NCBI GenBank assembly: GCA_963727485.1
Contig: CAVSGM010000002.1
Location: forward strand, 736,001-800,000
DNA from: an uncultured delta proteobacterium
GTDB taxonomy: Bacteria; Myxococcota; Myxococcia; SLRQ01
Reading direction: 5' to 3'
Length of the DNA stretch: 64,000 bases
Shown here: piece by piece, positions 46,773-61,616 of the stretch
Layout of the letters: every line of letters begins with the position of its first letter
Numbering within the stretch: position 1 is the stretch's first letter
The notes under the pieces: generated by a model
The model's input: only the letters and a program-made list of their open reading frames with translations
Database searches by the model: none
Told to the model about the DNA's origin: nothing
Translations under genes and position numbers: made by a program

Positions 46773-46954
46773 GCTTCCCTCCTCGGCGTGCAGCGTGGGG
46801 CGCGCGGCATCGGGCCCCGATCGGCGCCGACGGTGCCACGGGCGGTGGTTCCGGTCAAATTCCCGGACGGGGGTGGGAAGGCGCCCACATCCGGAAAACC
46901 CCAATGGGTACGGACCTGTACGGACCCCGCCCTTCGTGGTACACCTGGACGGGC

Positions 46955-49900
46955 ATGGGTCTGCCCAGGGTATCCGTCGTCGCGACCCTCTGTGCGGGGG
47001 TGATCGCCTGTACGCCCACCGCGCCGGTGGACCGCATCCCCCAGGCCGTGGCCTCCGCGGACCGCCTCGCCGGCAACGCCCCCCTCACGGTGGCGTTCAC
47101 CGGCAAGGCCCTCGGCGGCGACCCGCCCCTGAAGTACGCCTGGGACTTCGGCGACGGCCAGAGCGCCCAGGTCCAGAGCCCGACCCACACCTACCCGGTG
47201 AAGGGCAGCTACCACGCGGTGCTCACCGTCACCGACGTCGACGGGGACGCCGACCAGGACGACCTCACCGTCCAGGTCGCCAGCTCCGCCCTCACCGCCC
47301 GCGTCGGCGCCGACCCCCTCTCGGGGAAGGCGCCGCTCCAGGTCCAGTTCACCTCCGGGGTCACCGGCGGCGCCCAGCCCTACACCAGCGACTGGGACTT
47401 CGGCGACGGCAACAAGAGCACCGACGCCAACCCGGTCCACGTGTTCAACACCGGCGGGCAGTACGCCGTCACCTACAAGGTCACCGACGCCAACGGCAAG
47501 AGCGCCACCGACCAGGTCCAGATCTCGGTCTCCGACGCCAGCAAGCCCGCGGCCACCGCCACCGCCACCCCCACCTCGGGGGCGGCGCCCCTCACCGTCG
47601 CCTTCCAGGGGAGCGCCACCGGCGGCACGGCGCCCTACACCTGGGAGTGGGACTTCGGGGACGCGAGCCCCAAGTCCAAGGCGGCGAACCCCAGCCACAC
47701 CTACCAGAGCGCCGGGACCTACACCGCGGCCCTCACCGTCACCGACGCCAACGGCGCCACCGACAGCCGCTCGGTGCAGATCACCGCCGCCGCCAACTCG
47801 GTCCCCGTGGCCAGCGCCAGCGCCACGCCCACCAAGGGGGTGGCCCCGCTCCAGGTGGCGTTCACCGGCCAGGCCACCGGCGGCGACAAGCCCCTGACCT
47901 GGAGCTGGGACTTCGGCGACGGCGGCACCTCCAGCCAGCCCACGCCGACCCACACCTTCCAGACCGCCGGGGTCTACACCGCCACCCTCACCGTCACCGA
48001 CGGCAACGGGGACAGCTCCAGCGCCCAGGTGAGCGTCGAGGTCGGCGACAACCAGATCCCCAAGGTCACCGCCTCGGCCAAGCCCGTCAGCGGCACCGCC
48101 CCCCTCACCGTGAGCTTCAGCGGCACCGCCAGCGGCGGCAACCCGCCGCTCACCTTCTCCTGGGACCTGGGCGACGGATCCACCTCCACCAACCAGAACC
48201 CCAGCCACACCTACCAGGCCGCCGGGACCTACAACGCCACGGTCACCGTCACCGACGCCAACGGCGACACCGACACCAGCTCGGTGTCCATCAACGTCGC
48301 CTCCAACAGCCAGCCGGTGGTCACCGCCTCGGCCTCGCCCACCAGCGGCCAGGCGCCGCTGGCCGTCTCCTTCTACGCCTCGGCCCAGGGGGGCAACCCA
48401 CCCCTGACCTGGTCGTGGAGCTTCGGCGACGGCAGCAAGGCCGCCACCACCGCCAACACCACCCACACCTACCAGGCCGCGGGGACCTACACCGCCCAGG
48501 TGGTCGCCACCGACGTCGACGGCGACGCCAGCTCGGCCACGGTCACCATCCAGGTCTCCTCCAACAGCATCCCCCACGCCCGGGCGTTCGCCGACGTGAC
48601 CCAGGGCATCGCGCCGCTGAAGGTGAGCTTCACCTCCCAGGTCACCGGCGGCGACGCCCCCCTGACCTACGCCTGGGACTTCGGCGACGGCGCCGGGACC
48701 ACCGGGACCAGCGCCAGCCACACCTACCAGAAGGCCGGGAGCTACACGGTCCTGCTCACCGTCACCGACGCCAACGGGGACACCTCCACCGACACCCTCA
48801 CCATCAACGTGGCGAGCAACTCGGTGCCCACCGTCTCGGCGAGCGCCAGCCCCGGCAGCGGCGCCCCACCCCTGGCCGTCGCCTTCACCGCCACCACCAG
48901 CGGGGGCAACGCGCCTCTGACCTACGCCTGGGACTTCGGCGACGGGAGCACCGCCACCGCCCAGAACCCGAGCCACACCTACCAGACCGCCGGCGTGTTC
49001 TCGGCGACGGTGGTGGTCACCGACGCCAACGGCGACTCGGCGAGCGCCTCGACCCAGGTCCTGGTCCAGCAGCAGCTCCCCGACCTCACCGTCTCGGGCC
49101 TCACCATCTCCGCCCAGGGCGACCAGGTGGTCTTCCACTACACGGTCACCAACAACGGCAACGCCGACTGCCCGGCGTTCAACATGGACATCTACGACGA
49201 CCGGAGCACCGCCCCGGCGTCCGGGGAGGCCGGACCCTTCTACCTCCCCGAGCAGCCGCTGGCCGCCGGGGCGAGCCGCACCGAGGGCGCCTTCGTCACT
49301 CTCACGCCGGGCACCCGCTCCGGGTGGATCCAGGCCGACGGCGCCAACTCGGTGGCCGAGAGCGACGAGACCAACAACGTCGCCGGCCCGGTGAGCTACG
49401 ACGTCTCCGGGCCCCTGGTGGTGAACGAGGTCCTCTACGATCCCCCGGGGAGCGACGCCGGGTGCTTCATCGAGCTCCACGGGCCCCCGGGCACCGACCT
49501 CACCGGCTACACCCTGGTGGGGGTGAACGGCGCCGGCGGGACCGACTACGCCACCATCGACCTCTCGGGGCAGGCCATCCGCTCCAACGGCTTCTTCGTG
49601 GTCGCCCAGGACTCGACCGTCCCCGCGTCGGTGGTCGACCTGGTCGACCCCAACGCCAACCTCCAGAACGGCCCCGACAGCGTGCAGCTGCGGTTCAACG
49701 GGGCGGTGGTCGACGCGGTGGGCTACGGCGACTTCTCCTCGGCGACCTTCGCCGGCGAGGGCACCCCGGCCCCGGACCCCTCGTCCTCGACCACCGACTA
49801 CAGCTCCATCGGCCGGGACACGGCGAGCACCGACACCGACGACAACGGCGTCGACTTCCACATCCTCGACTACCCCACCCCGGGGGCCCCGAACCCGATC

Positions 49901-50296
49901 TCCGGCGACACCTGCAGCTACGCCATCCCCGTCACCGCCTCGGCGACCCTCACCGGGACCACCGCCGGCGCCGTGGACGACTACGGCGCCTACAGCTGCG
50001 GCGCCGGGACCTGGCAGCCCGACGTGGTCTACGCCGTGTCCCTCTCCGCCGGCCAGACCCTCACCGCCACCATCACCCAGGCGGCCAGCGGCTTCGATAC
50101 CGTCCTCTATCTCCGGTCGGTGTGCACCTCCACCACCTCCGAGGTCGCCTGCAACGACGACGGGCCGGGCCTGGGCACCAACTCCCAGCTCGTCTACACC
50201 GCGTCCTCCTCGGGGACCTACTACCTGGTGGTCGACGGGTACGGCACGGCGTCGGGGAACTCCGGCGCCTACACCCTGACCGTGAACCTCCAGTAG
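46955..50296 (+). CDS. Surface lipoprotein: 8 PKD repeats + CARDB + lamin-tail-like + PPC-like domain
   Basis: Lipobox VIAC; eight W(D/S)(F/L)GD..H(T/V)(Y/F)..G..TD..G units of about 85 aa; PDLTVS..ESDETNN; VVNEVLYDP..FIELH..PTPG; FDTVLYL..CNDD..GTYYLVVDGY. Confidence 0.88.
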   Translation: MGLPRVSVVATLCAGVIACTPTAPVDRIPQAVASADRLAGNAPLTVAFTGKALGGDPPLKYAWDFGDGQSAQVQSPTHTYPVKGSYHAVLTVTDVDGDADQDDLTVQVASSALTARVGADPLSGKAPLQVQFTSGVTGGAQPYTSDWDFGDGNKSTDANPVHVFNTGGQYAVTYKVTDANGKSATDQVQISVSDASKPAATATATPTSGAAPLTVAFQGSATGGTAPYTWEWDFGDASPKSKAANPSHTYQSAGTYTAALTVTDANGATDSRSVQITAAANSVPVASASATPTKGVAPLQVAFTGQATGGDKPLTWSWDFGDGGTSSQPTPTHTFQTAGVYTATLTVTDGNGDSSSAQVSVEVGDNQIPKVTASAKPVSGTAPLTVSFSGTASGGNPPLTFSWDLGDGSTSTNQNPSHTYQAAGTYNATVTVTDANGDTDTSSVSINVASNSQPVVTASASPTSGQAPLAVSFYASAQGGNPPLTWSWSFGDGSKAATTANTTHTYQAAGTYTAQVVATDVDGDASSATVTIQVSSNSIPHARAFADVTQGIAPLKVSFTSQVTGGDAPLTYAWDFGDGAGTTGTSASHTYQKAGSYTVLLTVTDANGDTSTDTLTINVASNSVPTVSASASPGSGAPPLAVAFTATTSGGNAPLTYAWDFGDGSTATAQNPSHTYQTAGVFSATVVVTDANGDSASASTQVLVQQQLPDLTVSGLTISAQGDQVVFHYTVTNNGNADCPAFNMDIYDDRSTAPASGEAGPFYLPEQPLAAGASRTEGAFVTLTPGTRSGWIQADGANSVAESDETNNVAGPVSYDVSGPLVVNEVLYDPPGSDAGCFIELHGPPGTDLTGYTLVGVNGAGGTDYATIDLSGQAIRSNGFFVVAQDSTVPASVVDLVDPNANLQNGPDSVQLRFNGAVVDAVGYGDFSSATFAGEGTPAPDPSSSTTDYSSIGRDTASTDTDDNGVDFHILDYPTPGAPNPISGDTCSYAIPVTASATLTGTTAGAVDDYGAYSCGAGTWQPDVVYAVSLSAGQTLTATITQAASGFDTVLYLRSVCTSTTSEVACNDDGPGLGTNSQLVYTASSSGTYYLVVDGYGTASGNSGAYTLTVNLQ

Positions 50297-53594: not shown

Positions 53595-55178
53595 ATGGCC
53601 CGGAGCGAGAAGATGCGAGCGGCGGTGGAGGCCCTCCTCCACAAGCGGGAGACGGCCTACCAGATGGGCGGCCCCGAGCGGGTGGCCCGCCTCGCCGAGA
53701 AGGGCAAGCTCGACGTCCGCACCCGCCTCGACCTCCTCTTCGACGCCGGGACCTTCGTGGAGCTCGGCCTCCACGCCCAGCACCAGGGCAAGCTCGCGGA
53801 GGCGCAGCCCAAGCCCTCCCCCGCCGACGGCTGCGTCACCGGCATCGGCGAGGTCGACGGGCGCCCGGTGGCCGTCGCCGCCTACGACTTCACGATCTAC
53901 GGCGGCTCCATCGGCGAGATCGCCGAGTACAAGACCACCCGCCTGCGCGACCTGGCCCTCAAGGAGCGCATCCCCATCGTCTGGCTCATCGACTCCGCCG
54001 GGGCGCGCCTCTCCGCCGACAGCGCCATGGACCCGCGGGCCATCTCCGGGTTCGGGGGCACCGGGTACCTGTTCCGGGAGCAGTCGATCCTCTCCGGCGT
54101 CATCCCCCAGGTGGCGGCGATGGTCGGGCCCGGCGCCGCGGGCACCGCCTACATCCCGGGGCTCGCCGACTTCGTCCCCATGGTGAAGGGCACCAGCTCC
54201 ATGGCCATCGGCGGCCCCTACCTCACCGAGTCGACCATCGGCGAGAAGGTCACCGAGGAGGAGCTCGGCGGCTCCAAGATCCACACCACCCTCTCGGGGG
54301 TCGCGGACCTCCAGGTGGAGGACGACCGCGCCTGCATCCAGGCCATCAAGGACTACCTCTCGTACTTCCCCGGCTCGTGCACCGCCAGGCCGCCGCGGCG
54401 GGAGTCGACGGTGAGCCCCGGCGACAAGGTCGACGACGCCATCCTCGACATCGTCCCCGACAACCCGCGCCAAGCCTACGACATGCTCAAGATCCTCCGC
54501 CTGGTGGTCGACGGCGGCGTGCTCTTCGAGATGAAGCCCAAGTGGGCCAAGAACATCGTCACCGCCTTTGCCCGCATCGACGGCCGGCCGGTGGGCCTCG
54601 TCGCCAACAACCCCAAGTACTACGGCGGCATCCTCGACGTGAACTCCGCCGACAAGGCGGCGCGCTTCGTCAACCTCTGCGACAGCTTCAACCTCCCGCT
54701 CGTCTTCTTCCAGGACGTCCCCGGGTTCATGGTGGGCACCAAGGTCGAGCAGGCGGGCATCATCCGCCACGGCGCCAAGATGCTCCAGGCGGTGAGCCTG
54801 GCCACCGTGCCCAAGCTCACGGTGCTGGTGCGCAAGGCCTACGGCGCCGGCTACTACGTGATGAACGGCCGCGCCTACGAGCCCGACCTCATCGTGGCCT
54901 GGCCCGGCGCCGAGGTGAGCGTCATGGGCGCCGAGGGGATGGTCTCCATCGCCGCCCGGAAGATGCTGGCGCAGGCGGACGACCCCAAGGCGGTCAAGCA
55001 GCAGCTCGCCGACGCCCTGCGACCCCACATCAACATCTGGCAGGTCGCGGCCCTCGGCCACGTCGACGACGTCATCGATCCCCGGGAGACCCGGTGGGTG
55101 CTGGCCCGGGCCCTCGCCTACTCGGAGAACAAGACGGTGGAGCGCCCCTGGCGCAAGGGGCCGGTGAGGCCGGTGTAG
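53595..55178 (+). CDS. Acyl-CoA carboxylase carboxyltransferase (beta) subunit, PccB/AccD-like
   Basis: DFTIYGGS, DSAGARL, EELGG..H..SGVAD, DVPGFMVG..GIIRHGAK, RKAYGAG, DDVIDP. Confidence 0.92.
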   Translation: MARSEKMRAAVEALLHKRETAYQMGGPERVARLAEKGKLDVRTRLDLLFDAGTFVELGLHAQHQGKLAEAQPKPSPADGCVTGIGEVDGRPVAVAAYDFTIYGGSIGEIAEYKTTRLRDLALKERIPIVWLIDSAGARLSADSAMDPRAISGFGGTGYLFREQSILSGVIPQVAAMVGPGAAGTAYIPGLADFVPMVKGTSSMAIGGPYLTESTIGEKVTEEELGGSKIHTTLSGVADLQVEDDRACIQAIKDYLSYFPGSCTARPPRRESTVSPGDKVDDAILDIVPDNPRQAYDMLKILRLVVDGGVLFEMKPKWAKNIVTAFARIDGRPVGLVANNPKYYGGILDVNSADKAARFVNLCDSFNLPLVFFQDVPGFMVGTKVEQAGIIRHGAKMLQAVSLATVPKLTVLVRKAYGAGYYVMNGRAYEPDLIVAWPGAEVSVMGAEGMVSIAARKMLAQADDPKAVKQQLADALRPHINIWQVAALGHVDDVIDPRETRWVLARALAYSENKTVERPWRKGPVRPV

Positions 55179-55199
55179 CGGCCGGGGCCGCCGGTTGGG

Positions 55200-55949
55200 C
55201 TAGGGCGCGGTGGTGAAGTCCGAGACGAGCTCGGCGCCAAGCTGCTGGGCGTCGGTGCTCTGGACGTCCGAGGTCACGTGCAGCTGGTAGCCGGTGCTCG
55301 CCGCCAGCGCCGACCGCGGCTTCAGGTCGACCTTCAGCCCCCCGCTGCCGGTCACCGGACCCACCACCGCGCTCACCCGGCGGCCGGCGGTGTCGGCGAG
55401 GAAGAAGTGCCGGGCGTCGGCGAAGCGGTCGGGGATGGGCCGGCTCAGGGTCACCTCCACCGTGGTCGCCGGATCGACGCCGGTGCTCCCGTCGGCCGGG
55501 TCCACCCGGGACACCCCGAAGGCGATGGGCGTGTCCGTGGGCGTGAAGTGGCGGACGAAGGCCTGGCCCATGGGGTTGAAGTACCGATCCTCCACCGTGC
55601 CCGAGACGGTGAGGGTCCACACCACACCGGGGGTGAGCGGCGCGTCGGGGACGAAGCGCACCAGGTTGTCGGTGTCCTGGGCCCGGCGGTCGAGGTGGCC
55701 GCTGGCGGTCAGGGGGCCGGCGACCAGGGTGAAGGCGGCGAGGTTCACCGAGTCCCAGTTCATGGGCTCGGAGAACCACACCGAGAGCGCGGCGCCCGTG
55801 GGCACCCCGGTGGCCCCCTCCACCGGGAGGGCGAAGTCCACCGACGGCGGCGTGGTGTCCACCGCGGCGAAGGGCGACTGCCCGGGGACCGCGCAGCCGG
55901 TGGCGAAGAGCGCGGCCGCCGCCACGCCGAAAAGTCGCGCGCGGATCAT
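55200..55949 (-). CDS. Lipoprotein with two bacterial Ig-like (Big_5-type) domains
   Basis: Lipobox ATGC; DTTPPSV..P..GATGV..FSEPM; second unit VDPADGSTGV..; ATGA overlap with the cytochrome gene. Confidence 0.8.
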   Translation of the reverse strand: MIRARLFGVAAAALFATGCAVPGQSPFAAVDTTPPSVDFALPVEGATGVPTGAALSVWFSEPMNWDSVNLAAFTLVAGPLTASGHLDRRAQDTDNLVRFVPDAPLTPGVVWTLTVSGTVEDRYFNPMGQAFVRHFTPTDTPIAFGVSRVDPADGSTGVDPATTVEVTLSRPIPDRFADARHFFLADTAGRRVSAVVGPVTGSGGLKVDLKPRSALAASTGYQLHVTSDVQSTDAQQLGAELVSDFTTAP

Positions 55950-57208
55950 TGGCAGGCCGTGGGGATGGAGGCGTGGCACTTCTCGCAGCTGCGCGGGTTG
56001 CGCATCGCCGCCGCCTTGCACACCGAGGTGAACCCCGGGGGGTGCGGGGTGAACGAGAGGCCGCTCATCTGGGCGGTGGCGTGGCACTTGAGGCAGGTCT
56101 CCTCCCGGTGGCAGGAGGCGCAGGCCATGATGTTCCGCCGCGCGGCCCAGGCGTGGAAGTTGGGGCTGCTCTGGTGGGCGAGATTGATCCAGCCCTGGGG
56201 ATGGAAGCGCAGGTTCTGGCACTGGCCCGAGGGGGCGTAGGCGCAGTCGGGGGCGTGGAAGGTCGGGTTCTGGGTGGGGTCGCCGCCCCGGACCACGCCG
56301 GTGGGCGCATCGACGCCGATCCCCAAACGCTCATGGCAGGTGACGCAGAACGACTGGCGCCGATGGCAGCCGTTGCAGGAGAGGCTGTCCTGGCGCGCCG
56401 CCACCGGGTGGGTGCTGATCCAGTCCGCCGGGTGGATGTCGAAGGGCTTGAGGGTCCCGTCGTGGCAGTCGGTGCAGAACTTCTTGGTGTGGCAGTCGTC
56501 GCAGATCTTCGCCTGGAGGCGCCCGGCGAGGCTGTGGTTGCGCCGCCACCCGGCGCCGTGGTCCATGTGGAGCACGTCGTCGCCGGGCTCGAGGGTGCCG
56601 GTGGGGAACGAGGTCTGCAGCCGTCCGTCGGGCCCGGTGAGGTGGCAGGTGTCGCACCGCCGCGAGGCGTGGACGTCGTCGTGGCAGGTGAAGCAGGTGG
56701 CCATGGTGGGCAGCTGCTGGCGGGTGGCCTTGGCGACCTTGAACAGCTTCCCGTGGCAGGCGGCGCACTTGATCCCGCGCTTCAGGTGCTGCTGATGGCT
56801 GAACTTGAGGTTCGCGGTGGGGAAGACCGCCGGCCGCACCGGGGCCACCTGCGCGGGGTGCCAGCCGAGGTGGCAGAGGCTGCAGTCGTTCTGCGGCTTG
56901 GCGGTGGACCCGGGCTTCGGCGGCGACACCGCGTGGCAGTCGACGCACCGCGGGTGGGTGGGGATGAGGTGGTCCGCCGGGGAGGTGCTCTGGTCGGCCT
57001 TGTGGCAGTCGTCGCAGGAGAGGATCCCCGTGGCCAGGTGCTCCTTGTGGGTGAAGGCGAAGTCGATGTCCTGGGGCGGGTAGATCGCCTGCGACCGCGG
57101 CCCGGTCGCCGAGGGGTGGGTCGTCGGGAGCGGCTTCCCGTCGGCCCGGGCGACGGAGGCGGCGAGGGCCACCGCGAGGACGGTCACGGCGAGGGCGAGG
57201 CGGCGCAT
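55946..57208 (-). CDS. Periplasmic multiheme cytochrome c, 13 CxxCH motifs
   Basis: Sec signal ending ARA-D; CDDCH, CVDCH, CSLCH, CAACH, CFTCH, CDTCH, CDDCH, CTDCH, CNGCH, CVTCH, CASCH, CLKCH, CEKCH. Confidence 0.92.
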   Translation of the reverse strand: MRRLALAVTVLAVALAASVARADGKPLPTTHPSATGPRSQAIYPPQDIDFAFTHKEHLATGILSCDDCHKADQSTSPADHLIPTHPRCVDCHAVSPPKPGSTAKPQNDCSLCHLGWHPAQVAPVRPAVFPTANLKFSHQQHLKRGIKCAACHGKLFKVAKATRQQLPTMATCFTCHDDVHASRRCDTCHLTGPDGRLQTSFPTGTLEPGDDVLHMDHGAGWRRNHSLAGRLQAKICDDCHTKKFCTDCHDGTLKPFDIHPADWISTHPVAARQDSLSCNGCHRRQSFCVTCHERLGIGVDAPTGVVRGGDPTQNPTFHAPDCAYAPSGQCQNLRFHPQGWINLAHQSSPNFHAWAARRNIMACASCHREETCLKCHATAQMSGLSFTPHPPGFTSVCKAAAMRNPRSCEKCHASIPTACQ

Positions 57209-58579
57209 CAGAAGCCCACTCCCAGGTTGACCACCAGGTAGACCCGGAAGTCGTTGGCGAGGAGCTTGCTGGCGTCGTCCTCGAGGTAGAGGTGCACCCG
57301 GGCCTGCCGGTCGAAGGCGTAGTGGACCCCGGCCCGGACCCCGACGGTGGCCGTGGCCTGGTTTGGGAGCAGCGGGTCGGCGGCGTAGCCCCCGGCGAGG
57401 CCCAGGCTCCCGGAGACCGGGCCGTAGAGGGTGCGCTGGGCGTCGCCCTGCACCCAGGCCTGGGTGCCGCCGTAGCCCCCGAGGTAGGAGAGGTGGAGGG
57501 CGTAGCGGTGCCCCGGGGCCGGGAGCCAGCTGGCGTCGACGGAGCCCCCGGCGGCGAGGCTCTGGGTCTTCATCACCACGTCGGTGTAGCGCCGCACCCG
57601 GGCCCGGAGCTGGAGCGAGAAGCGCGCCACCGGGTGCCAGCGCCCGAAGAGATCGCCCTCTTCCAGCGGTCCGGTGGCGAAGCTGTTCCAGATGGAGTCG
57701 GCGTCGAAGGTGGGCACCGCCCGCAGATAGTCGACGCCGGCGACCCAGCGCCCGGGGAGCTCGGTGTCCACCCGCGCCTGGACGTAGGAGACCCGGCTCA
57801 TGAACAGGTCGTACTCGGCGTTGCCGCTCACCTCGACGCCGAAGCGCCGCCAGGCGACGCTCGCCGCGGCCCGCTCCAGGTCCACCGCCCCGGCGCTCAC
57901 CGCCCGCTGGTAGCCGAGGGTGGCGACGATGCCGGCCACCGGCGTGGTGCCCACCTCGGCGCCCCAGATGACGCTCGGCGCCGACTGGTAGCCCGCCAGG
58001 GGATAGGGCCAGCTCGGGCCCACCCGCTGGGCCAGGGCCGCGTCCGAGGAGCGCACCCCGTCGGGCTCGAAGGTGGGCGAGCCGAGGAACGATCCCGCCT
58101 TGACCATCAGCCCCCCGAAGGCCTCGAAGCGCAAAGGGCCCAGGGTGTAGTCGGCGTCGGCGCCGTCGACGTAGCGGAAGTCGAAGAGCCCCATCCGCAG
58201 CATCCGGCCCACGGTGAGGGTGAGGTGGCGCTCCAGGGTGCGCCACCGGAGGTTGCCCACCAGGAGCTCCACCGTGTCGCGGTTGACCCCGTCGAGGGCC
58301 TCGGGCTCGCCTGGGCGCCAGCCGAGGTCCGTGCCCACCCGGAGGCTCAGGTTGAGATTCGAGGTCGGCGCTCCCGGCGATGTCGTTGCCGTAGAGCGAG
58401 AGGTCCTCGTAGAGGCGCTGGCGGGGGAGCAGCAGCGCGTCGGAGAAGGCGTTGCGCCAGGCGCGCAGCGCGTAGGCCTGCCCCTCGGTCTGGCTACGGA
58501 CGACGAAGGTGCCGGCGAGGGCCGGGGTGGCCACCAGCGCGGCGGCCGCCAGCGCGACGATGCGGGTCGGGGTGCGCGT
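57208..58579 (-). CDS. Outer-membrane beta-barrel (putative porin), about 456 aa; frameshift near 58372, start codon uncertain
   Basis: Signal RIVALAAAALVATPALA; LTVGR..VDGADADY; many amphipathic strands; C-terminus YLVVNLGVGF; TGATG overlap with the cytochrome gene. Confidence 0.75.
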
Positions 58580-58687
58580 CTCTCCTCCAGGGTCGTGCGG
58601 TCGGACCTGCAGCCGCGAGCGGGGCCGCCGATGATAGCCGCAGAGGGCGTGGTCGCAAATGGCGAACCTGCTATCCTCGCCTTACTC

Positions 58688-59422
58688 ATGGGACGCTTCT
58701 TCACTCGCGAGGCGGGCATCCTCATCCTCGTCGGGGGTGTGGTCATCTCCGCCCTCGGCGTGGCCGACCATCTCCCCTGGCCGCTGCTCGCCGCCGTGGT
58801 CTTCGCCTGGGTGCTGGTCGCCGCCGTCCTCTCCATCGGGCTGACCCACTGGCTGGTGCCGGTGTATCTGCGCTTCGGGTTCATCGACCGGGCCATCGAG
58901 CTGTGCCTCCTGGCCCGCGACAGCGCCCCCAACCGCAAGATGCGCGACCAGGCCTCGGTGGACGTGGCCATGATCCACGCCACCACCGGGCGCTTCGCCG
59001 ACGCCCTGCGCAACCTCGAGCGGGTCAACGCCTTCGCCATGGGCACCCTCCCGCGGGCGCTGGTGGAGGCGAACCGCGCCTGGTGCCGGGCCCACCTGAA
59101 CCAGGACCTGGAGAAGGCCCTGGAGGAGGCCCACGGCGCCCGGGAGGCGGTCCCCGACGAGGGCATCTTCGCCTACATCGAGGGCCTGGTGCTCCACCGC
59201 CTCGGCCGGGACGCCGAGGCCCTCGAGGCCATCGAGGCGAGCCTGGTGTCCGAGCCCGATCCCCGCCTGCCCCAGCCCGGGGAGCGCGCCCTGGTGCTCT
59301 CCGAGGTCCGCCAGGCCCTCGGCGACACCGCCGGCGCCCGGGCCGCCCTCGACGACGCCGTCCGCCAGGGGACGCAGGGCCCGTTCCGCGAGGCCATCGA
59401 CCAGGCGCGGGTCAGCCCGTGA
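58688..59422 (+). CDS. Membrane protein with two TMs and TPR repeats
   Basis: Two hydrophobic N-terminal helices, then TPR-like units (GRFADAL, GRDAEAL, GDTAGAR). Confidence 0.7.
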   Translation: MGRFFTREAGILILVGGVVISALGVADHLPWPLLAAVVFAWVLVAAVLSIGLTHWLVPVYLRFGFIDRAIELCLLARDSAPNRKMRDQASVDVAMIHATTGRFADALRNLERVNAFAMGTLPRALVEANRAWCRAHLNQDLEKALEEAHGAREAVPDEGIFAYIEGLVLHRLGRDAEALEAIEASLVSEPDPRLPQPGERALVLSEVRQALGDTAGARAALDDAVRQGTQGPFREAIDQARVSP

Positions 59423-60704
59423 GCGGGTTGCGGCGCTGGATGGTCTGGTCGCGCTGGGCGCCGACGCTCACCAGGACCACCTCGACCCCCACCTCGTCCT
59501 CGATTCGCTTCACGTAGGCGCGCGCCGCCTCGGGGAGGTCGGCGAACGCCCGGCACGCGTCCAGGGGCTCGGTCCACCCGGGGACGGTCTCGTAGACCGG
59601 CTCCAGGGCCTCGAGGATCGCCCGGTCGGTGGGGATGTCGTCGAGGCGCGCGCCGCGGTAGGTGTAGTGGGTGCACACCTTCAGCTCCGCGAAGCCGGTG
59701 AGGACATCGAGCTTGGTGAGCGCCAGGCCGGTGAGGCCGTTGACCCGCGCCGCGTAGCGCAGGGCCGGCAGGTCGAGCCACCCGCAGCGCCTCGGCCGGC
59801 CGGTGGTGGCCCCGTACTCGGAGCCCGCCTCCCGGAGCCGGTCGCCCACCTCGCCTGAGAGCTCGGTGGGGAACGGGCCGGCGCCCACCCGGGTGGTGTA
59901 GGCCTTGCTGATGCCGATGATCTCGTGGAGCGCCGTGGGCCCGATGCCGGTGCCGGTGGCGGCGCCGGCGGCGACGCAGCTGGAGCTGGTGACGAAGGGA
60001 TAGGTCCCCTGGTCGAGGTCGAGGAGCGTCCCCTGGGCCCCCTCGAAGAGGATGGCGTCCCCGGCGCGGCTGCGCTGGAAGAGGAAGAGCGACACGTCGT
60101 CGACCAGGGGCGCCAGGCGCTCGGCGGCCCGGGCGTAGGGCTCGACCACCTCGTCGACGGTGAAGGGGTGGCCCCCGAGGCCCTGGAGGTGATCGTTGAC
60201 CTCGTCGAGGCGGCCCTCGACCCGGGCGCGGAACCGGTGGGGGTCGACCAGCTCCTCGACCCGGATGCCCTGGCGCGCGGCCTTGTCCTCGTAGGTGGGC
60301 CCGATGCCCCGGCCGGTGGTGCCGATGGCGGCCTTGCCGCGCCGGCGCTCCCGAAGGTGATCGAGGCGCTTGTGCCAGGGCATGATCACGTGGGCGGCGC
60401 CGGAGAGGCGCAGGCGCCCGGGGCCCACGGTGATGCCCTTGACCTCGAGGAGGTCGAGCTCCTCGACGAGCGCCAGGGGATCGACCACCACCCCGTTGCC
60501 GATGGCGGTGACCGCGCCGGGGTGGAGCACGCCGGAGGGGATGAGGTGGAGGATGGTCTGCTCGCCGGCGACCACCACCGTGTGCCCGGCGTTGTTGCCC
60601 CCCTGGAAGCGGACGACCACGTCGGCGTCGGCGCTGTAGAGGTCGACGACCTTGCCCTTCCCCTCGTCGCCCCACTGGGCCCCGACGATGACCACGTTCG
60701 GCAT
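59412..60704 (-). CDS. purA: Adenylosuccinate synthetase
   Basis: QWGDEGKGK, GGNNAGHT, IGTTGRGIGP, EGAQG, GATTGRPRRCGW, TKLD. Confidence 0.97.
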   Translation of the reverse strand: MPNVVIVGAQWGDEGKGKVVDLYSADADVVVRFQGGNNAGHTVVVAGEQTILHLIPSGVLHPGAVTAIGNGVVVDPLALVEELDLLEVKGITVGPGRLRLSGAAHVIMPWHKRLDHLRERRRGKAAIGTTGRGIGPTYEDKAARQGIRVEELVDPHRFRARVEGRLDEVNDHLQGLGGHPFTVDEVVEPYARAAERLAPLVDDVSLFLFQRSRAGDAILFEGAQGTLLDLDQGTYPFVTSSSCVAAGAATGTGIGPTALHEIIGISKAYTTRVGAGPFPTELSGEVGDRLREAGSEYGATTGRPRRCGWLDLPALRYAARVNGLTGLALTKLDVLTGFAELKVCTHYTYRGARLDDIPTDRAILEALEPVYETVPGWTEPLDACRAFADLPEAARAYVKRIEDEVGVEVVLVSVGAQRDQTIQRRNPLTG

Positions 60705-60815: not shown

Positions 60816-60872
60816 CCCGGCTGAACGTGCGTGGCCCCGCCCTGGCGCGGGCGATCGCCCAAGGAGGGGAAC

Positions 60873-61616
60873 ATGTCCAACCTTCGTCGCTACGTCGTCG
60901 CTCTCGGTCTCGTCTCCGCCCTCGCGGTGCCCGGTCTCGCCCGGGCCCAGTTCGTGCCCCCGGCCGACGACAGCGCCCCACCCCCGCCGCCCCCCTCGGC
61001 CTCGACGCCGCCGGCGAGCACCCAGATGCACGCCCACACGGCCGGGCCCGCCAAGGACAACCGCCCCACGGGCATGTCCGTGGGCATCGGCGCCGGCTGG
61101 ACCTTCCCCGCCCAGGTGCTCTCCCCGAGCACGGTGAGCGTGCGGATCCGGTTCAACGACTCCCTGGCCCTCGAGCCCACCCTCGCCCTCTCCTTCGGGA
61201 GCGGGGCCACCGAGAACGTCGCCCCCAACGTCGACACCGTCGACCGCCTCGCCGACTACGAGGTGGGCCTGGGGGTGAACCTGCGCTACGTCCTCGCCCG
61301 GGCGGGCAACCTCGACTTCCAGGGGCTCGCGGGCATCGGCTTCGACAACCAGGGGCACCAGACCGACCCCAACGGGCCCAACAACCTCACCCGCGAGGTC
61401 GACACCACCCTGGGGCTGAACTACGGCATCGCCATCGAGTGGTACTTCGCCCGGCACCTCTCGTTCTCCGCCGACGCCATGAACCCCATCGTCTCCTACT
61501 CCGTGAAGTCCCAGGTGGCGCCGGGGCCGCCGCAGGTCTCGAGCACCACCTCGAGCTTCTCCCTGGGCCTGGTGTGGTCGCCGACGGTGCGGCTGCTCTT
61601 CCACGTGTACTTCTAG
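60873..61616 (+). CDS. Outer-membrane beta-barrel protein
   Basis: AAGGAGG RBS; signal ending ARA-Q; Pro linker; about 8 amphipathic strands; C-terminus LLFHVYF. Confidence 0.8.
   Translation: MSNLRRYVVALGLVSALAVPGLARAQFVPPADDSAPPPPPPSASTPPASTQMHAHTAGPAKDNRPTGMSVGIGAGWTFPAQVLSPSTVSVRIRFNDSLALEPTLALSFGSGATENVAPNVDTVDRLADYEVGLGVNLRYVLARAGNLDFQGLAGIGFDNQGHQTDPNGPNNLTREVDTTLGLNYGIAIEWYFARHLSFSADAMNPIVSYSVKSQVAPGPPQVSSTTSSFSLGLVWSPTVRLLFHVYF

Follow-up and report, generated by a model that had tools for sequence, protein, structure and literature searches.

A barrel and 13-heme cytochrome gene pair as a probable two-component porin-cytochrome conduit with a clade of its own in the Myxococcota

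Conduits that join a porin to a multiheme cytochrome c in the outer membrane (porin-cytochrome conduits, Pcc) are represented in Geobacter by ExtABCD, ExtEFG and OmbB-OmaB-OmcB, and a long cytochrome inside a barrel is the plan of Shewanella MtrAB and of MtoAB/PioAB. The arrangement nearest to the one analysed here is Pcc group IV of Anaeromyxobacter (A2cp1_3538/3539, Adeh_3391/3392), in which a porin is followed by a long cytochrome without any outer cytochrome (PMC4245776). The present locus lies in a 64,000-nucleotide stretch (the window; positions 736,001 to 800,000 of contig CAVSGM010000002.1, assembly GCA_963727485.1) from an uncultured delta proteobacterium of the Myxococcota, in keeping with the myxobacterium-like host of an original prediction made from the sequence alone. 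Its three minus-strand genes encode a beta-barrel, a 13-heme cytochrome c and a heme-free lipoprotein with immunoglobulin (Ig)-like domains. The first two products probably form a Pcc-type porin-cytochrome conduit, i.e. a two-component trans-outer-membrane electron wire whose partners would bind each other, and which has its own Myxococcota clade (clade A).

Group IV is known from genomics and proteomics only; in strains 2CP-1, 2CP-C and K it consists of a porin and a 12-heme cytochrome of 338-344 aa, and such long cytochromes have been argued to be able to span the membrane alone (PMC4245776). The pair at locus L055 (handles in G, L and f denote genomes, loci and families) is assigned to group IV from names, length and heme count, as its cytochrome (P0323) has 344 aa and 12 hemes and clusters with sequences bearing the names Anaeromyxobacter dehalogenans 2CP-1, 2CP-C and strain K. 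The window cytochrome is collinear with P0323 (26% identity, E 2e-19), and the porin homology expected within the Pcc family is evident from the match of the clade A barrel profile to the L055 barrel (E 7e-20, profile positions 9-453). The barrel profiles of clades A and B align end to end, over 397 columns, with a probability of 99.9 and an E value of 1.8e-35. On these alignments the pair is a remote homologue of the Anaeromyxobacter porin and 12-heme cytochrome, within a clade of its own, and the proposal of a wholly new conduit has to be given up, both partners being homologous over their full length to a published Pcc pair (PMC4245776).

The two groups nevertheless differ in several respects. 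In a quick tree of 43 barrels, rooted at its midpoint and containing four long branches, clade A stands apart from the rest with an SH-aLRT of 98. The window cytochrome has 13 hemes against 12 in group IV, a cleavable signal where P0323 has a lipobox-like N-terminus (both read from sequence), and a C-terminal Cys pair. The lipoprotein, with its Big_5 domains, is an accessory of clade A and was found at none of the 16 clade B or 6-heme loci described next, and the clade A hosts include aerobic myxobacteria.

Besides clade A, the barrel profile returned 55 weak rows, 18 of which, picked by hand, were examined; two proved to be remnants and 16 were kept. A homologous cytochrome adjoins the barrel at all 16 of these loci, with 12-13 hemes in 11, 6 hemes in four and a cut by the contig end in one, and further multiheme genes lie near the pair at eight. 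The 6-heme relatives correspond to the C-terminal 7-heme region of the window cytochrome alone. Both clades are present in the source genome (G000), whose clade B locus (C2:1339831-1345530, L075) encodes an MtrC-like decaheme protein, an 11-heme GSu_C4xC protein, a barrel and a 13-heme cytochrome; this barrel was matched by the first barrel profile (E 6.5e-22) and is absent from the matches listed for the deeper one. At L002:1-10180, from a Polyangiales bacterium, a clade B pair stands amid 7-, 8-, 13-, 25- and 10-heme genes.

The linkage of the two clade A genes was monitored across the phylum. The cytochrome occurs in 78 of 301 genomes, and in 76 of these its gene directly follows a barrel gene of the same strand, so that the synteny called for by the original prediction is present; an exported cytochrome within the 5-14 hemes of the Pcc family thus adjoins the barrel in nearly every case. 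The barrel profile was built partly from 20 barrel-cytochrome loci, the remaining loci being independent, and the unpublished genome G196 is counted among the 78, the 76 and the 24 without a lipoprotein (see below). Three f2 genomes retain deleted remnants of the operon (L071:6721-7125, L072:6693-7145, L073:6182-6673), in which the barrel and its partner genes have decayed jointly and which represent recent loss, and no match was found in the 18 genomes of genus g11 that were searched. No other same-strand multiheme gene was seen at any of 61 loci (some flanks being short, six with less than 1.3 kb downstream), and hence no outer-membrane cytochrome in the cluster, a feature of most Pcc members and not of group IV; the predicted lack of a nearby outer partner is thereby supported. 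At 10 of the 13 f14 loci a divergent gene for a 3-4-heme cytochrome lies a few kb upstream of the barrel (e.g. L044:11954-12649). Beyond the trio, no neighbour within about 6 kb is common across families at 21 loci.

The 420-aa cytochrome carries 13 CxxCH motifs, and two stretches match Pfam PF14522 (c7-type, E 6.8e-18), as had been predicted from its two c7-like units. Among 120 listed homologues 117 have 13 motifs and the other three have 12, which is more than expected by chance. The 13 motifs, 11 spare His residues (candidate ligands) and M169 (117/121) are conserved across 121 aligned homologues, and a thirteenth candidate ligand, H85, varies (Glu in 76, His in 31). The predicted four extra Cys residues are present at positions 322, 330, 397 and 419; only C397 and C419 are conserved, however (112 and 116 of 121), C322 and C330 being within a private insertion (1/121 each). 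The first six hemes find their best solved-structure matches by sequence in c7 cytochromes and ACIII ActA (8k9e, 6lod, 6f0k, PpcA), covering about the first 180 residues only, while a sequence search of solved structures gave no significant match to the C-terminal 7-heme module. Of 38,421 frames, 18 were matched by a profile of this module built without clade B, and each of them was either a cytochrome associated with a barrel or a remnant. The source genome's 15 other multiheme proteins all went unmatched. To judge from these profile matches, the module goes specifically with this barrel family.

The barrel protein ends in Phe. Its intact relative at L036 (47% identical) was modelled with 22 strands and no plug (pLDDT 92.7, pTM 0.86), consistent with the large barrel that had been foreseen, and 22 amphipathic segments were also counted by eye. 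The modelled strand number falls inside the range of 18-22 reported for Pcc porins (PMC4245776) and outside the 26-strand MtrB/PioB type; the width between C-alpha atoms is about 39-40 Å by a textbook formula with an assumed shear number. As many as 1,687 representative proteins match the barrel profile (E up to 0.001). Barrel profiles gave nothing significant among solved-structure sequences, where the Pcc barrel family is without a match, and fold searches with the L036 model returned generic large barrels only, with no Pcc porin among the matches listed. MtrB (6r2q_B; Z 14.2, root-mean-square deviation (rmsd) 4.9, 357 aligned) ranked 16 by Z among unrelated barrels. Language-model look-alike clusters, which are unnamed and serve as leads only, come from Myxococcota, Thermodesulfobacteriota, Nitrospirota, Ignavibacteriota, Gemmatimonadota and Acidobacteriota.

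The conduit reading is preferred because of the linkage in 76 of 78 genomes, the plug-less 22-strand model, the specificity of the 7-heme module for the barrel, the homology to the Anaeromyxobacter pair and the joint decay of the genes. Several observations weigh against it. Extracellular respiration is, to our knowledge, not known in the named aerobic hosts. The barrel and cytochrome genes lie apart in two of the 78 genomes (G136 and G248), the structural model is that of the L036 relative and not of the window's own barrel, and its loops, long at about 137-196 and conserved at about 283-299, could cap the pore. By BLAST the window barrel reaches the L055 barrel with an E value of 2e-4 only. 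The link to the characterised Geobacter conduits is remote and made in two steps, its second step being taken from published group IV identities: the group IV porin is 24% identical to GSU2644 and GSU2726 and 15% to OmbB, and its cytochrome 30% to GSU2643 and 22-23% to OmaB (PMC4245776). A search aimed at the named Geobacter barrels gave only Anaeromyxobacteraceae and Syntrophales names among the matches listed. Finally, no experiment on any clade A member was found in the literature covered, most subscription journals being outside that coverage. GSU2643 is ExtC of the electrode conduit, and extABCD is required for growth on electrodes (PMC5585712).

In the proposed mechanism the cytochrome would leave the cytoplasm by the Sec route and mature in the periplasm. 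The 7-heme module at its C-terminus would insert in the barrel so that the terminal heme reaches the cell surface, and the two c7 units would hang in the periplasm and trade electrons with the respiratory chain. With 13 hemes the wire would have sufficient length by itself, like MtoAB/PioAB, and need no outer cytochrome; Mto/Pio-type clusters also lack one (PMC4245776). The Geobacter conduits, unlike the present pair, possess extra periplasmic and outer cytochromes and are hosted by anaerobic metal reducers, and MtrAB combines a 26-strand barrel with the decaheme MtrA, in contrast to the 22 modelled strands and 13 hemes found here.

Of the competing explanations, the one that survives best, though improbable, is that the cytochrome docks at the periplasmic mouth of the barrel without spanning it. 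The barrel would then be a channel by which a soluble redox substrate (a metal chelate, a quinone or an oxyanion) enters the periplasm to react there; alternatively, the pair would serve as a redox store or sensor. The plug-less barrel with generic channels as best structural matches, the variable distal position of the heme facing H85, a possible binding site, and the aerobic hosts agree with such a role. Opposed to it are the homologous pairs that stand amid further multiheme cytochromes at 8 of 16 loci, the C-terminal heme chain as a module common to all barrel partners, and the transfer of electrons across liposomes by a Geobacter Pcc complex (PMC4245776).

It is still less probable that the barrel is an usher-like export pore and delivers either the cytochrome or the lipoprotein with its Ig-like domains to the cell surface. 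In VIA-align the L036 model matched two ushers best, FimD at Z 17.1 and PapC at Z 16.5 (about 340 residues aligned, rmsd 5.2-5.6), and these ushers export Ig-fold subunits. OccD porins and other barrels tie with them, however, at identities of 8-12%, and the barrel match is a generic one; the model has no plug, no chaperone gene or other conserved extra neighbour appears across the 21 loci, and the lipoprotein is missing beside 24 of the 78 pairs. Secretion of cytochromes mediated by Pcc is regarded as speculative in a review (PMC12307469), which leaves some room for a pore of this kind.

The lipoprotein is an accessory, optional subunit. It has a lipobox-like FATGC as read from its sequence, and Pfam PF13205 (Big_5) matches it in two stretches (E 6e-30), in line with the two Ig-like domains first noticed. 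Of the 78 genomes, 54 have it next to the pair (at 37 of the 61 wide loci and all 17 narrow ones; the profile was built from 12 of the lipoproteins counted), the families being f1 (3/3), f2 (36/39, with one miss at a contig end), f12 (14/14) and f17 (1/1). It was not seen in the other 24, and no case came from f14 (13 loci), f3 (three), f4 (two), f8, f13 or f24. Most homologues have one Big_5 domain, two being the number in family f1. In both f4 loci (L042:5848-6318 and L096) the slot is occupied by a monoheme PSCyt1-like lipoprotein, and at L049:8599-9660 a monoheme Big_5-PSCyt1 fusion lies upstream, the PSCyt1 matches being below the Pfam cut-off. The heme motifs of these three proteins are atypical.

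This distribution bears directly on the original proposal, now rated slightly below the export pore, that the trio is obligate and that an adhesin at the surface, standing in for the outer cytochrome, makes contact with minerals or other cells. The tight joint of the lipoprotein gene to the cytochrome gene in 54 genomes and the lack of a same-strand outer cytochrome at 61 loci speak for it. As against this, 24 pairs lack such a neighbour, with none at all in f14, f3 and f4, the protein is usually single-domain, and its slot can hold a monoheme lipoprotein; a sequence search of solved structures gave nothing significant for it and matched no solved adhesin. The obligate unit is thereby not supported, and the adhesin role finds no support either. 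The lipoprotein may instead be an optional membrane-anchored scaffold or assembly partner of the conduit and not a redox part.

Plain orthology to one of the characterised complexes (MtrAB, OmbB/OmaB or ExtBC), which the shared architecture and remote Pcc homology might suggest, is very hard to reconcile with a DmsE/MtrA model score of 16 bits against a cut-off of 192.2 (TIGR03508, a decaheme type that 13 hemes do not fit), the want of any Pfam or NCBIfam family beyond weak generic matches for 26 barrels, with no MtrB/PioB match in the proposed MtrA/MtrB comparison (both databases presumably hold such a model), the 22 modelled strands in place of 26, and a clade that stands apart from the Anaeromyxobacter pair and coexists with the other in the source genome.

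The direction of electron flow through the conduit is a separate question. Clade A cytochrome clusters carry the names Myxococcus fulvus, M. stipitatus, Stigmatella aurantiaca, Cystobacter fuscus, Archangium and Melittangium, and myxobacteria other than Anaeromyxobacter are described as strictly aerobic (PMC2330069). The balance leans tentatively to uptake of electrons from extracellular donors into oxygen respiration because of these aerobic hosts, the lack of an outer cytochrome, the conserved Met, which may be a heme ligand, and the second, MtrC-bearing conduit of the source genome. Hemes with His/Met ligation tend toward higher potential. Disposal of electrons when oxygen is short is rated somewhat less likely. 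The lack of an outer cytochrome has been tied to Fe(II)-oxidising mtr clusters; the same paper reports no pcc cluster in any Fe(II) oxidiser, which weighs against uptake (PMC4245776). A more specific proposal, speculative and on present evidence unlikely, makes clade A an inward-running Pcc conduit of aerobic predatory myxobacteria, with Fe(II), reduced humics or the surfaces of prey or siblings as donors for oxygen respiration, a 13-heme wire that is self-sufficient, and a lipoprotein slot taken by interchangeable adaptors at the surface, either an Ig stalk or a monoheme protein.

Coordinates of the features are collected in Table 1.

Table 1. Features of the barrel-cytochrome-lipoprotein locus, in window coordinates
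Feature	Position	Strand	Basis or remark
Promoter-like site TTGCGA-16-TATCAT	58631..58658	-	Upstream of barrel; putative function
GGAGG ribosome-binding site and probable ACG start	58577..58588	-	Probable start
Outer-membrane beta-barrel, probable Pcc-type porin, ~456 aa including signal peptide	57208..58579	-	One extra base splits the gene in the assembly
Extra base (assembly error) giving an apparent frameshift	58358..58359	-	Absent from bridging contigs
Exported c-type cytochrome with 13 hemes, in two c7-type triheme units followed by a 7-heme module	55946..57208	-	Motifs, Pfam, alignment
Accessory third subunit: lipoprotein without heme, two Ig-like Big_5 domains	55200..55949	-	Pfam PF13205, lipobox-like FATGC

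The three genes are real genes in series, coupled as predicted by a TGATG joint between barrel and cytochrome (at 57208) and an ATGA joint between cytochrome and lipoprotein (at 55949). In the assembly the barrel gene is split by an extra base, and its frameshift is an assembly error, not biology, because the base is missing from the contigs bridging 58358/58359 in 4/4 runs (four studies) and the two frames fit consecutive parts of the barrel profile (positions 8-72 for the N-terminal and 69-459 for the C-terminal frame). The base is also missing in 3/3 runs when the best-ranking run, a possible source, is set aside; the bridging contigs, each of depth below 5, agree with one another, and two show no other difference. 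The habitats of the runs (salt marsh, sediment) have shares of at most 0.32 and are given no weight, and no RNA run was among those listed for the locus, which has no bearing on expression. The third-position G+C content (GC3) shifts frame between about 58390 and 58360. The predicted +1 base is hence real as an error, and its place is 58358/58359 rather than about 58372. Programmed frameshifting was rejected, the base being absent from all four runs.

Start of the barrel gene is likely the ACG at 58579, since no in-frame ATG, GTG or TTG was found before the signal peptide, the ACG sits behind GGAGG and the TATCAT promoter-like site, two sequencing runs cover the same letters with 0 differences, and the relative L042 has a TTG at the same 4-nt spacing after GGAGG. 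The TTGCGA-16-TATCAT element is the sole promoter-like site in 55000-59500 (shuffled sequences, mean 0.0); TATCAT also occurs 5' of the L042 barrel, and TATAAT-like boxes are found there in L001 and L037-L040. In these last loci the box stands 9 nt before a TTG or GTG, and very short leaders may be possible. Barrel genes appear to favour weak starts, with ACG in the window and TTG or GTG elsewhere.

Genes for cytochrome c maturation and for two heme-copper oxidase subunits are present in the source genome, as is an ACIII-type operon. This operon, with a heme-copper oxidase subunit, lies about 10-20 kb from the trio and just outside the window (G000:C2:804974-816209, L081); linkage to ACIII as a conserved feature was rejected, the operon being about 10 kb away in this genome and no neighbour beyond the trio being shared across families. 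Frames with at least three CxxCH motifs number 17 in the genome, and adjoining genes at G000:C3:97142-102575 (L076) encode a 30-heme and an 8-heme protein. Elsewhere in the window, 46904-50296 (plus strand) encodes a likely surface-located or secreted protein of 1130 aa in which eight PKD domains accompany CARDB and PPC domains, and 60831-61616 (minus strand) a 261-aa exported protein that ends in Phe, has no Pfam match and is probably a small outer-membrane barrel.

The conduit architecture, even in its two-gene long-cytochrome form, is already in print; what is new is that the pair forms a clade of its own which has spread into aerobic myxobacteria, and that the slot beside it holds an accessory lipoprotein. 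Within the literature coverage given above, no study of clade A and no mention of five clade A accession numbers and one of group IV were found. A preprint (10.1101/2022.03.26.485925) describes the Myxococcota as rich in novel putative extracellular electron transfer cytochrome clusters with ExtABC matches, and these might include clade A; PMC10553843, PMC12133095, PMC13591261 and PMC12307469 provide conduit background only.

The presence of a porin-cytochrome conduit is taken as a sign of anaerobic metal respiration. If cultured myxobacteria that are described as strictly aerobic keep an intact and conserved one, these soil predators would be exchanging electrons with the surroundings for another purpose, and a compact system of two or three genes in cultured hosts makes this testable. 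Annotation pipelines miss the barrel because it has no Pfam or NCBIfam family despite its 1,687 profile matches. If the uptake reading is true, the Pcc family would gain its first uptake-type member in clade A, and myxobacteria would have an unrecognised energy source.

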